This document shows positions 36,001 to 42,000 of a stretch of DNA of 43,678 nucleotides, piece by piece. This stretch comes from a virus (Duplodnaviria > Heunggongvirae > Uroviricota > Caudoviricetes): positions 1 through 43,678 of IMG/VR virus record IMGVR_UViG_2531839668_000011. One strand, written 5' to 3'. Positions within the stretch are counted from its first letter, which is position 1, and each line of letters begins with the position of its first letter. Made by a program: the position numbers.

Positions 36001-39000
36001 AATAATATTGATATAACACTAAATGTTGTTGATTTATAATTGTCGATTTAGCAAAACAGAGAATGCTTTGAAAGTTTCACCGAGAAATATTTATTGTGAA
36101 CCTCCTTATTGTTTATCGACTTTTACTCTCCGCTCATTGCAGTACTGTCGGAGAAGGCTACTATGTACAAGAAGCAGCTAACATAAGCGAGCATCACTAT
36201 TGATATTAGGAAGAGTATATAAAAACTTCATGCTGAACCTTACAAAAGTAGGTAAACCGGCAATGGCCTAAGTGGCAGGGTCATGTTGATCCGGCACTGC
36301 CGAGCTAATAATTAACAAGCAAATCACTCTTTCTAATAATTTGTTGAAATAAACTAAATATGTATATGTTTACCAACAACCACATATGAACTACCTGCTT
36401 TGCTCCATGATTTTATTATTTCTAAATTATTATCTGAGCATATTTTACTTACAGTATCCACATCTAATAAACCATAGTAGAAAGCATTGCGAGAGTTTTG
36501 GTATATATACCCATGCAAATGTTTAATACCGCTCTCGTACCTCTTGAAATAAGAACTTTTGTATTGATTGACAATCAGTGCTTCACCATCACTCTTTAAT
36601 AATTCTCTAATCGCACTGAGGACTTTGTGAATTGTGGATTCACATGGAATTGCGGAAAGCACGTTTGCGCAAAGTATGAAATCATAATGATTTGTTATTT
36701 TATCTATATTTTCATAAGAAACAATATTAGCATTCTTATAGTTATTTATCACGTAATCTGGAATCGTGGTTTGTACACCTCTGATAATTTGCACTCTTTC
36801 TAGTTGTCTTCTGGAATCTAAAAATGTCACAGTTTCAAATTTATTTACTAATTGTTCTGAATATCTAAGTTTTCCACATCCAAAATCAAGGGCATTGCCA
36901 TTTTTATTAGTGCTTTCAATCTGTTTACAGAGATAGTTAGATGGCATAGTGTGCGGTTTCGCTGCATTTTCTGAACGTATGTTTATTCCATTTATTTTGT
37001 AATTCAAAATCAACCTCGTTTAAAAAATATTGTTATTGTTAAAGAATTCTTTTATTTTGCTATCAGGTATTTGTCTTACTTGGCTTTCTGTTCTTGGTTT
37101 AACTGATGCTATGAAAATAAGGAAGTCAAATGCGACAAGAGAAATAATCCACAACCAAAGATTAATTAAAGAGCCAGTAACAGAGAATATATTTGTTAAT
37201 TTGGCGATACTTATTATTAAAATAGTAACAAATGCGATTACTGTATGTTCAAAGAAAACCCAAAAGTAATAAACTTTGTTCCAGAAAAGTTCAACGTAAT
37301 GTTTGTCTTTTAACTCTTTAACTTCTGGGTAATACAGTTTACTCATTACCTTGTGAGATTCATCAGTAGTTAATTTTCTCGTAACGCCTGCAATTTTTGC
37401 TAATGGTTTAATAATTAAATGACTATCCCACATCTTCCTTATTCCAATAATTTTTGCTACATTATTATGTAGATCTAAAGCTCCACTAATTACTGACCAA
37501 AAAACTGAAGATGCAATTGGTAATATGCCAAAGGTTAATATCCATTTAATAAATTCCTCGTAGTCTTTAACGGGGGGGATATACTTGGCATTAATGCCAA
37601 CCAATGGCATGTAGCCATAAATGACTAATGATAGGTAAAATATAAATGTAGTAATAAAAGTCGCCTTATGGAGCATAGGCAACATTTCATTATAACTCTT
37701 TGGTGGTTCTAACATTTTACTCTCCAAACACTCAAAAAAAAGCTAATCTTCTATAATAACGAAATTCAGCTGGCACAATTAAAGATTAATTGCCACCAAT
37801 TTCTTGATTTTATAATTTTATCTAAATGTTTTTGATTAATCTAGTCCTAAAAGAAACCTACTGCATAAATATTTATGCTGATGACCCACTCCCTGTTCGT
37901 TAACACATAGCAACGTTAGTAATGCATCCTAAGTGATCAATATTTTTGCTAGCTTCATCTGCTCGCTCAAAGGGAACTATAATGTTGGCTTGCGTGTGAC
38001 TTGGCATGTTTAAAGAAGTGCTGGTGGTGACTGGTTGCTGTTTTCCATTTCCACAGAACAAAATCATAGAAACTATACCCAGTAGTTGTATTGAATCACT
38101 GACGAGACAGCCTCATATTTATCAGGACTGGTGTACGTCCAATACAGGAGGTTGTGGTGCTGGTTCTCAAATGTGCGCTGGCTATTGCTGCTGTAATGGC
38201 AATTTATTGTCTTGCTGTTGTTCTTATGGATCACCTTTCTGATTGATTTCATATTGGCGAGGTAACGGTAGTTAAGTAGAATTGCTGCGGGTGCTTGAGG
38301 CTATCTGCCTCGGGCATCAACACCAAAGGCAGATAGAGAAAAGCCCCAGTTAACATTACGCGTCCGGCAAGACGCTTAACATTAATCTGAGGCCATATCT
38401 ATGCTCTACACACGTAGGTTAGCCTCTTACGTGCCGAAAGGCAAGGAGAAGCAGGCTATGAAGCAGCAAAAGGCGATGTTAATCGCCCTGATCGTCATCT
38501 GTTTAACCGTCATAGTGACGGCACTGGTAACGAGGAAAGACCTCTGCGAGGTACGAATCCGAACCGGCCAGACGGAGGTCGCTGTCTTCACAGCTTACGA
38601 ACCTGAGGAGTAAGAGACCCGGCGGGGGAGTAATCTCCCGCCACCTCTGATGTGCCAGGCATCCTCAACGCACCCGCACTTAACCCGCTTCGGCGGGTTT
38701 TTGCATTAGTCTGGTTGACAAAAATAGAAAAATGCGAAAATATGTGGTTTACGAATTCTAAAAAAAGCGAAACTTGAAATGAATGAAAATCAGTTAGCTC
38801 CTTGTTGGGAATTTCAACCTTATCTTGCTGAAAACTATGTTCGCCACTTGTTGGCGGAGATCGCTAACGTACTTGAGCAGCTGTACTATCATAAGCACGC
38901 ATTAGACAGCAACTGGTCTGAAGGTGTAAGGGCTTATGATTGGGTCAGAAATCATCTTATTCAAAATGAAGATGCAATTCCTGGCCTTGAGATGATTTCC

Positions 39001-42000
39001 AAGGGGTTGGACTATGTAGTTGCTTTAAATAAAGTTCCGCTACAATTTACCAAAGATTGCATTAATAACCCCAAAAAGAAACATCGTCTGCGTCGAAATA
39101 AAGTAGAGTATGAGCAACTCTCATTGTTTGGTGATGTTGAGGCTGAGCAAGATATTACATGGCGAGTCATAGCTGAGCCTTTTTTATCCGAAGAGGGCGA
39201 TGGTGAATTAGAGTCCACACTGCCTCGTTGGGAGGTAGCTCTTGTTGGATTTAATACTTATGGTGCTCAGATTAGTATAGTTTCTCATCAATCTACAGCA
39301 TCGATGCCGCTTATGCCTCTTGATTATAACACACTCCCTGACGAAGCGGAGATTAATAAGGTGCCTCTTCGTCGGCGTACGAAGGATAAAGATTTGGATG
39401 TGAGCAGTGATGGAACATCAGGTGAATAACTTCACTGAGTATCGGGGTGATAAGCTCAAACTAGCGAGAATGGCTGTTGGGCTTTCTTGTGAAGAGTTAG
39501 CCGAAAAAATTGGCAAGACAAAGCAATTCGTTAGCAAACTGGAGAAGGGGTGCAGGCCATCGGAGCAATGTCTTGAGTTAATATCTTCAGCGCTTATGAT
39601 TAAGTCCAGTTTTCTTTTTACTGAACGAAAATACGCTCTGGAAAGTGATGTCTGCCATTTTCGGAGTAAGAAGTCCAGGACTCAAACGCTGACTAATAGT
39701 GTATTGGCCAGGGCTGAGATTCTTAATATTATAATTTCTGCTGTTGAAGGTGAAATCGAATTTCCTGACGTTAACATACCGGAGCACCCAGGGGCTGAAT
39801 TACTTACTCCGAATGATATTGAGCGAGTGGCAGAAGATTGTCGCCGTGCCTGGAATTTAGGTCTTGGCCCTATATCATCAATGGTTAAATTGGCGGAGAG
39901 TTTAGGGGTAATCGTTGCGCATGTTACGGGAGTCGATGATCGTGTTGATGCTTTTACTGTTCACAATAACAGGCCTGTTATCATCAGGAACAATGTTAAA
40001 AAAAGCATATGTAGATTTCGCTCTGATTTAGGTCATGAATTAGGGCATTTAGTAATGCATGAGGGCATAACGACAGGTGATAAACTTACGGAATCACAAG
40101 CCGATCACTTTTCGAGCGCCTTATTAGTTCCCAGGTTATCTTTCATTAAAGAATTTCCACGAATACGAGGTAAGCAATTCGACTGGAATGCTCTGGTTGA
40201 ATTTAAACTTAGATGGAAAATCAGCCTTAAAATGTGTATTTATCGAGCCAGCGCATTAGGCTTATTGACCCAGGAACAGGCAAGAACTGGCTATATGCAT
40301 CTTAATTCCAGAGGGTATACGAGAGTTGAACCTGGTGATGAACTTTTGCGCCCTGAAGAACCCGGTATGCTGGCCGAGGCGATTGAAATGCTGGATGATG
40401 CAACCTGGCTAAGAATTCTTATGAAAACTGGCTTGAGCCAAGATTTAATTCGTGAGTTGTTCTCCATCAACAGACCTATTACAAATCCAAGAAATATTTT
40501 CCAGATTGTTTGAGTATACCCGCTTCGGCGGGTTTTTTGTTTTTATTTTCAACGTGTTTGAAGTTTTGGACGGTGCCAGAATAGAATCAAAAATACTTAA
40601 GTAGCGCGCAGGGAGAAGAGGGATGGACCCCGAACAGGGGGAGTGCTATTTATCTGGAAGGATTCTGTTGATGAAAATCGAAGAATTACGTGAAATTTTT
40701 AGTGAGGATGGCCTCTATACTGTGCGCGTTGAGAATGGCGCTATTGTCAGCCACTGCCGTATTAAATGTTTACAGTCTCAACAAAGGAAGAGTGGAGCTG
40801 CGTTAATTCATTTGGTGGATGGGCTTGTGACGGATGGTTTTATTTTGCGTGCAAATGAATTTGTCACATCGTTGCCGTCTCTGAAAGAAGCTGGGATTAA
40901 GGCTGGTTTTTCTGCTTTTGAAGATGAGTGAATTCATCTACAATTCAGCGCAGGGCTGAACCCCTGTTGAGTAACACTGTGCCACCGGAGAAAGCCGATG
41001 GCGCAAAATTCCAGACAACACAATTCTGATAATTCAGCCGTCTTTGCCAGCAGGCACGGGCGGCGTTCTCATGCATTCAAATCTGACTGGTTCCAGCATG
41101 ATCCATGTACTGAAGAGCAGGCAGAGTGGCTAATTCAGAACTACCGCAGACGTGGTTACGAGTTTCAGAAAGACCTCAGCTTCGACTTCCGACACTGGAT
41201 AATCTCAGTCAGACTGCCTTACTCTGAACGCCCACCGCGTCCGTCCCGCACATTCCAGCAGCGTATCTGGAGGTAACGTGCGGGTATTACTTCGACCTGT
41301 TCTGGTAACTCAGTAAATATAGTGCAGAGTTCACCCTGTCAAACGGTTTCTTTTGCAGGAAAGGAATATGAGTTAAAGGTCATTGATGAAAAAACGCCTA
41401 TTCTTTTTCAGTGGTTTGAACCTAATCCTGAACGATATAAGAAAGATGAGGTTCCAATAGTTAATACTAAGCAGCATCCCTATTTAGATAATGTCACAAA
41501 TGCGGCAAGGATAGAGAGTGATCGTATGATAGGTATTTTTGTTGATGGCGATTTTTCAGTCAACCAAAAGACTGCTTTTTCAAAATTGGAACGAGATTTT
41601 GAAAATGTAATGATAATCTATCGGGAAGATGTTGACTTCAGTATGTATGACAGAAAACTATCAGATATTTATCATGATATTATATGTGAACAAAGGTTAC
41701 GAACTGAAGACAAAAGAGATGAATACTTGTTGAATCTGTTAGAGAAAGAGCTGAGGGAAATTTCAAAGGCGCAGGATTCTTTGATTTCTATGTATGCAAA
41801 GAAAAGAAATCATGCATGGTTTGATTTCTTCAGAAATTTAGCCTTATTAAAAGCAGGAGAGATATTCAGGTGCACATATAATACAAAGAATCACGGTATT
41901 TCATTCGGGGAGGGGTGTATCTATCTTGATATGGATATGATACTTACAGGTAAGCTTGGTACAATATATGCTCCTGATGGAATTTCAATGCATGTGGATC

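Follow-up and report, generated by a model that had tools for sequence, protein, structure and literature searches.

What is the two-gene cassette that stands between two identical terminator hairpins in IMG/VR virus record IMGVR_UViG_2531839668_000011, and how might the product of its first gene act? The whole stretch analysed, here called the window, comprises 43,678 nucleotides (nt; positions 1 to 43,678 of that record) and is nearly identical to sequence of Escherichia coli O157:H16 98-3133, where the element that hosts the cassette is a degraded Qin-like lambdoid prophage (prophage 2; its tandem neighbour is prophage 1). A first-pass annotation had described two overlapping genes on the + strand, flanked by identical terminator copies: one for a protein of 216 amino acids (aa) that could be an effector or toxin, possibly in defence, and one for a helix-turn-helix (HTH) protein fused to an ImmA/IrrE (M78) metallopeptidase. 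The open reading frames (ORFs), the HTH_3 and Peptidase_M78 domains, the HELGH motif and the 20-mer repeat were all found, and the two proteins match toxin and antitoxin models of RosmerTA. The cassette is most probably a RosmerTA-type toxin-antitoxin and anti-phage module, borne as a moron by prophage 2. A system of this kind is already known and is recognisable with existing hidden Markov models (HMMs); that it has a name and a literature had been missed, as had two details of the locus, namely that the downstream terminator is the module's own and that a rem-like ORF stands before the 92-aa gene.

Both proteins of the cassette match RosmerTA models

The first gene, rmrT, encodes a putative toxin that is acidic, hydrophilic and soluble, and in which no transmembrane segment was found. 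Residues 7-209 align with positions 5-195 of the 198-position PADLOC RmrT model PDLC03929, and the protein also matches phrog_5786 at 8e-85. Pfam and NCBIfam searches returned no match, and none of the Pfam, NCBIfam and phrog HMM searches assigned the protein a housekeeping phage function, a prospect that the first-pass annotation had raised. AlphaFold models of moderate quality (predicted local distance difference test score, pLDDT, 62 and 68) contain two long helices and, after them, a small sheet, and structure searches gave no convincing match. A reading of RmrT as a PD-(D/E)xK nuclease, prompted by matches to NaeI, was dropped because the catalytic triad is not conserved. A profile search of 1.84 billion representative proteins recovered 69 RmrT relatives, most of about 200 aa.

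The second gene, rmrA, encodes the predicted antitoxin and regulator. The match to the PADLOC RmrA model covers residues 12-351, and the protein also matches phrog_2439; against the NCBIfam spr1629-family antitoxin it reaches 1.5e-45, which lies under the cut-off of that model (156 vs 335 bits). Weaker PADLOC matches were obtained to capP (1.6e-14) and capH (1.5e-4). RefSeq starts the gene at the ATG at 39410, and an alternative GTG at 39407 would give 368 aa; the 23-nt overlap with rmrT that had been reported holds from the GTG, and from the RefSeq ATG the overlap is 20 nt. In RmrA homologues down to 35% identity, residues H209, E210, H213, H217 and E228 do not vary; E228 probably supplies the third zinc ligand. 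In the segment that joins the HTH to the peptidase, C82-H83-F84-R85 (window 39650-39661) is invariant over the same range and could be a cleavage, pseudosubstrate, regulatory or metal site. The invariance of HExxH, H217 and E228, together with that of C-H-F-R, argues for a catalytically active peptidase.

The pairing of the two genes extends well beyond the window. Toxin homologues of 53-84% identity in prophages of Enterobacter, Serratia and Xenorhabdus are likewise followed by an HTH+M78 gene. Three distant relatives (18-25% identity), one beside an integrase/resolvase, one beside a HigB pair and one in a chromosomal island, are each followed by a gene for an HTH_3+Peptidase_M78 protein of 371-374 aa. 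Across these loci the HTH+M78 partners have 367-374 aa and either overlap the toxin gene by 11-20 nt or follow it after an 8-nt gap. The partner lies directly downstream at all 10 loci outside the window, about seven of them independent. At the level of gene order, the comparison shows a pair conserved as a unit across distant Proteobacteria.

Relation to characterised systems

The RosmerTA system of E. coli OLC-716 (Millman et al, 2022; 10.1101/2022.05.11.491447) has the same plan, a two-gene operon with the toxin first and an antitoxin of about 370 aa that joins an HTH to a Zn-peptidase of the M78 type. Its RmrA is 29% identical to that of the window over 301 aa (E 2e-35), and its verified toxin has 239 aa against 216 aa in the window. 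Phage protection was shown for the OLC-716 system, and a delta-rmrA mutant was untransformable, possibly from toxicity (10.1101/2022.05.11.491447). In another family member rmrA is essential by transposon sequencing (Tn-seq), and essentiality of clpP or clpX has been linked to such modules in E. coli E101, where a prophage toxin-antitoxin pair makes clpP essential, and in Pectobacteriaceae. The strains looked up in the supplementary tables of Millman et al were not listed there, and a literature search by accession returned nothing for WP_001004956 or WP_000401168.

Two further systems show how differently RosmerTA toxins may act. That of Gordonia phage Kita is phage-borne, pairs an RmrA protease antitoxin with a toxin of no known family and defends E. 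coli against some phages (PMC10440598); its toxin carries a membrane segment at the C-terminus and acts by depolarising the membrane, unlike the acidic, soluble window toxin. RipAB (Spr1630/Spr1629) of Streptococcus pneumoniae, classed by its authors as a Rosmer toxin-antitoxin, has an antitoxin composed of an XRE HTH and an ImmA-like peptidase (PMC12795458). The toxin RipA is reported to target DnaN, suppressors in the hydrophobic pocket abolishing the two-hybrid interaction, and the action of the antitoxin RipB depends on ClpX (PMC12795458). The role described for RipAB is competence induction, unlike prophage-borne defence, and the paper mentions no clamp-binding motif. In SocAB of Caulobacter crescentus, the toxin blocks replication via the pocket of the beta clamp and ClpXP is made essential (PMC12795458), a logic like the one that we propose for RmrT below.

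Boundaries, architecture and mobility of the cassette

Comparison of the window with itself aligns 5782-6214 with 38270-38701 at 96.5% and 6273-6597 with 40977-41307 at 82%. Relative to prophage 1, prophage 2 therefore holds 2,275 nt of extra DNA (38702-40976). This extra DNA exceeds the cassette and includes the rem-like ORF. In prophage 1 itself the terminator is indeed followed by the 90-aa gene (6294-6566), after a 58-nt spacer. An empty site of the order hok-terminator-rem is present in the second prophage of E. coli FORC 064 (L001 40377-40540) and continues exactly as the window does after terminator copy 2, so the cassette is the 1,835 nt that the two repeat copies enclose. KFu019 (94% identical) has it between the hok terminator and the 92-aa gene, and beyond its second terminator the sequence runs on like the empty site of prophage 1. 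Presence of the rem-like ORF varies: prophage 1 and KFu019 are without it, and the FORC 064 second prophage has it.

Two exact copies of the 20-mer ACCCGCTTCGGCGGGTTTTT lie at 38683-38702 and 40518-40537, and a third, with 1 mismatch, at 6196-6215, against 0 occurrences expected from shuffles. All three copies form G+C-rich hairpins (-10.9 to -15.1 kcal/mol), and a T-run follows each. A terminator of the form ACCCGC-loop-GCGGG-T(n) ends the cassette in E. coli, KFu019, KL53 and Enterobacter, with differing loops; within 70 nt downstream of rmrA none was seen in Serratia or Xenorhabdus. Because the same stem recurs with different loops in unrelated contexts, the downstream 'repeat' is the module's own terminator, whose stem is common with that of hok. 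An origin of the flanking repeats from a transposon or a target-site duplication was rejected, the repeat being a terminator that the module carries in unrelated contexts; the cassette holds only two genes, and in KL53 and Enterobacter a different sequence precedes it. In architecture it is a moron, with a promoter, two genes and a terminator of its own, and not a transposon.

At the upstream end, conservation of the cassette across species starts at GGTTGACAAAA. Over the 66 nt that precede rmrT, identity is 86-94% from E. coli to Serratia, as against 66-94% in the coding sequence; the Xenorhabdus leader is only 58% identical vs 62% for the coding sequence. From the perfect -35 hexamer and the cross-genus conservation, we infer that the -35 and -10 elements and the two 28-nt repeats constitute a promoter with RmrA operators.

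Cassette DNA is present in 237 of 5,426 complete E. coli genomes (224 records at an identity of at least 99%), as against 4,774 of these genomes for the hok flank, which agrees with the suggestion that the pair is not core content. The cassette is accessory, and its site varies from prophage to prophage. The KL53 copy (80% identical) is in another lambdoid prophage, one that lacks hok; those of Enterobacter and Xenorhabdus separate the replication genes from Q, and that of Serratia is placed between Q and the holin gene. The earlier view of a discrete inserted module is thereby upheld, the 1,835-nt unit recurring at other positions in other lambdoid prophages.

A candidate clamp-binding motif in RmrT

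The most conserved residue of the RmrT family is E110 (92%), which precedes Q113-L-S-L-F117 to give E-x-x-QLSLF. Motifs that bind the beta sliding clamp (DnaN) have the form Q-phi-x-[LM]-[FL] or Q-phi-x-[LM]-x-[FL]; the tightest binders are QLxLF and QLxLxF, the effect of replacing Q with N is modest, and known motifs lie in disordered termini or internal loops that are flexible and have mostly negatively charged flanks (PMC11139829). Judged by these patterns, 32 of 59 and 38 of 53 family members have the motif at the aligned site, compared with 0.3-0.4% of shuffled segments, and elsewhere in those proteins only 1-3 matches occur. Most members outside the strict motif carry near-variants such as QLSLL, QFSLF and QMDWI. 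QLSLF is the sole QL[SD]LF in the 16,961 residues of the open frames of the window, and its region in RmrT has acidic flanks and a pLDDT of 55-63. Window RmrT may be a clamp-binding replication poison that would insert the conserved E-x-x-QLSLF into the hydrophobic pocket of DnaN; we place this reading only slightly short of an even chance.

The verified OLC-716 toxin carries QLKLDL at aa 143-148, within an acidic segment. At this one aligned site of the OLC-716 toxin family, 22 of 24 members fit the relaxed pattern and 11 of 24 the strict one, as QLKLDL, QLTLDF or NLDLF; QLxLDL is found in Enterobacterales and NLDLF in Vibrionaceae and Shewanella. In the literature searched, no clamp-binding motif in RosmerTA toxins was found. 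Toxin families with no detectable sequence similarity to one another (PDLC03929/phrog_5786, OLC-716 and, by genetics, RipA) could have converged on clamp poisoning, a wider proposal that we advance tentatively and with rather less than even confidence. On this convergent view, each toxin would carry a short clamp motif in an acidic, flexible segment and would be held in check by an HTH-M78 antitoxin together with ClpXP.

Proposed mechanism

According to the model, transcription would start from the TTGACA-17-AAATAT promoter and would be auto-repressed by the RmrA HTH at the two 28-nt repeats, and translation of rmrA would be coupled to that of rmrT through the 20-nt overlap. RmrA would keep RmrT inactive, perhaps by cleavage or by handing it over for degradation (related Rosmer systems need ClpX/ClpP). 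The antitoxin SocA, in work from Aakre and colleagues in 2013, is reportedly a ClpXP adaptor and not an HTH-peptidase, unlike RmrA. Phage infection or loss of RmrA would free RmrT and lead to cell arrest. The liberated toxin would dock in the DnaN pocket and block clamp-dependent replication in the host and in phages served by the host replisome, the mode of action reported for RipA and SocB.

Alternative explanations

Several points weigh against this model, some at the level of the module and others at the level of the motif. Homology of the window toxin to the verified OLC-716 RmrT was rejected (BLASTP E = 7; hhalign probability 0.5-1%). Unrelated toxins do not exclude membership in RosmerTA, because the published description treats RmrT toxins as variable, a single antitoxin scaffold being combined with different toxins (Ernits et al, 2023; PMC10440598). 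The literature search found no experiments on the PDLC03929/phrog_5786 toxin family, to which toxicity, neutralisation and phage defence would extend by family membership; the likeness drawn between the window toxin and RipA or SocB is one of described mechanism, and homology to SocAB is not expected. Toxin mechanisms differ within RosmerTA, the Kita toxin acting on the membrane. The proposed promoter was not called by a consensus scanner, and its -10 element is weak (3 of 6). As for the motif, about 40% of the representatives at 50% identity depart from its strict form, AlphaFold places residues 108-115 of RmrT in a short helix, and QLSLF is a five-residue pattern whose conservation could be structural or serve binding of RmrA or ClpX.

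These last points bear on the alternative that survives best, in which the module is RosmerTA and the toxin acts off the clamp, either as an enzyme, such as a divergent restriction-endonuclease-like nuclease, or on another target, with QLSLF a structural element or a contact for RmrA or ClpX. We give this a substantial chance, if less than an even one; on the other side stand the motif counts at the aligned site and the acidic flanks of QLSLF.

A second alternative is that the pair is only an addiction module, which stabilises the prophage remnant and its type III secretion system (T3SS) effector cargo post-segregationally and has no role in defence. The host prophage is degraded yet retains hok/sok, rmrTA and nleB2/nleC/nleH/nleF, the antitoxin is essential in related systems, and neither the cassette DNA nor the toxin protein had a match in the sequenced-phage collection, all of which fits addiction; the decay of the prophage and the want of matches among sequenced phages also weigh against the main reading. 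However, the RosmerTA systems of E. coli and of Gordonia phage Kita protect against phages, and the cassette occupies classic moron sites in intact-looking prophages of Enterobacter, Serratia and Xenorhabdus. Addiction and defence are moreover mutually compatible, and addiction alone appears unlikely.

Least of all do we expect a damage-responsive switch of the mobile element after the fashion of ImmR/ImmA or CapH/CapP. On that view DNA damage would prompt the HTH-peptidase to cut itself or a repressor, thereby inducing the prophage or neighbouring genes, and the 216-aa protein would serve as a non-toxic accessory or a sensor. The HTH and M78 composition, the weaker capP/capH matches and the invariant C82-H83-F84-R85 as a possible cleavage or regulatory site speak for it. 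Against it, the prophage already switches immunity through a dicA/dicC pair of its own, the cassette brings a promoter and a terminator with it and stands at unrelated positions, including non-prophage islands, always with the 200-aa partner, full-length RmrA models fit far better than capP (349 vs 52 bits), and no CBASS gene or integrase/excisionase target gene is adjacent. ImmR/ImmA of ICEBs1, IrrE/DdrO and CapH/CapP resemble the cassette in the functional link between an M78 metallopeptidase and an XRE HTH; their HTH repressor is a protein apart that serves as the substrate, and they have no toxin partner, whereas here the domains are fused and a partner of about 200 aa is always present. 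The cassette has no separate HTH repressor substrate that controls genes of the element.

Features of the locus and neighbouring genes

The positions of the cassette features and of the genes immediately around it are collected in Table 1.

Table 1. Features of the rmrTA cassette and its flanks (window coordinates)
Feature	Position	Strand	Basis and remarks
Hok/Gef gene, upstream of cassette	38401-38613		PF01848, 2.9e-23
Terminator copy 1	38682..38705	+	Native hok terminator, left insert boundary; homology with prophage 1 ends at 38701
Module promoter and leader	38712..38778	+	Conservation, direct repeat; roles inferred
28-nt direct repeat TGGTT(G/T)AC-N-AAAAA(T/A)GCGAAA	38712-38739 and 38745-38772		33-nt spacing; putative RmrA operator
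-35 TTGACA	38715-38720		Perfect
-10 AAATAT	38738-38743		17 nt downstream of -35
rmrT, putative toxin	38779..39429	+	216 aa, isoelectric point 4.9; PADLOC RmrT PDLC03929, 4.6e-25
QLSLF codons (RmrT aa 113-117), candidate beta-sliding-clamp-binding motif	39115..39129	+	Family conservation; RmrT peptide for the motif EYEQLSLFGDVE
rmrA, antitoxin/regulator	39410..40513	+	367 aa from ATG; PADLOC RmrA PDLC03943, 6.2e-105, plus 13 further RmrA models
XRE-type HTH (RmrA aa 17-63)	39446..39598	+	Pfam HTH_3; matches SinR and 434 repressor among solved structures
Peptidase_M78 (ImmA/IrrE; RmrA aa 177-282)	39935..40252	+	Pfam PF06114, 6.4e-11
HELGH (RmrA aa 209-213)	40034-40048	+	
Terminator copy 2	40517..40543	+	Module's own, fused to ancestral sequence downstream of hok
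rem-like 86-aa ORF	40671-40931		phrog_340; 72% identical to Rem of neighbouring prophage

Prophage 2 runs from a frameshifted integrase through dicB/dicA/dicC, replication genes, three cargo genes, hokD, rmrTA and the rem-like ORF to the 92-aa gene, with nleB2/nleC'/nleH'/nleF beyond; no Q, lysis or structural genes are present in the remnant. From window 41322-42218 onward (L009 28185-31333), the 92-aa gene is followed directly by the T3SS effector genes nleB2, nleC (partial), nleH (frameshifted) and nleF. The early regions of the tandem prophages share near-identical segments (1-1140 vs 30984-32123, 99%; 3657-4161 vs 34362-34866, 94%), and these are recombination substrates between the two elements.

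The three cargo genes lie between the replication genes and hok (35140-37727). The first encodes a SMEK-domain protein whose N-terminus matches PDLC02399, a PADLOC model associated with prokaryotic Argonaute (pAgo), at 1.4e-20; the second a class I S-adenosylmethionine (SAM) methyltransferase with a weak mad2 match; and the third a hypothetical protein of 235 aa that matched nothing. The three may amount to a further islet of accessory or defence-like genes. In a neighbouring prophage of E. coli FORC 064 (L001 37842-39837), genes for an AAA-family ATPase (457 aa) and an HNH endonuclease (211 aa) lie just upstream of hokD; judged from its domains, the pair would have a Septu-like architecture in an equivalent cargo position. 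Other toxin-antitoxin genes occur near rmrTA homologues elsewhere: ParE/Phd and HicAB follow Q in the Xenorhabdus prophage (L013 8449-10355), and a HigB-type pair lies directly upstream of the homologues on metagenomic contigs (L005-L007 3163-3820).

Implications

As a system, the cassette is ordinary, a catalogued defence or toxin-antitoxin module in a prophage. Its alleles define a portable 1.8-kb unit that reaches from promoter to terminator, and the terminator stem that it has in common with hok shows how morons slot between phage transcription units. For the mechanism of RosmerTA toxins, the conserved clamp motif of the window family, with a similar one in the verified E. coli family, provides a modest, testable lead. 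If the wider proposal is true, RosmerTA would have a general effector mechanism, a block on clamp-dependent replication in the host and in phages dependent on its replisome, and the motif would tie E. coli RosmerTA to the recent findings on DnaN and ClpX in the pneumococcus.

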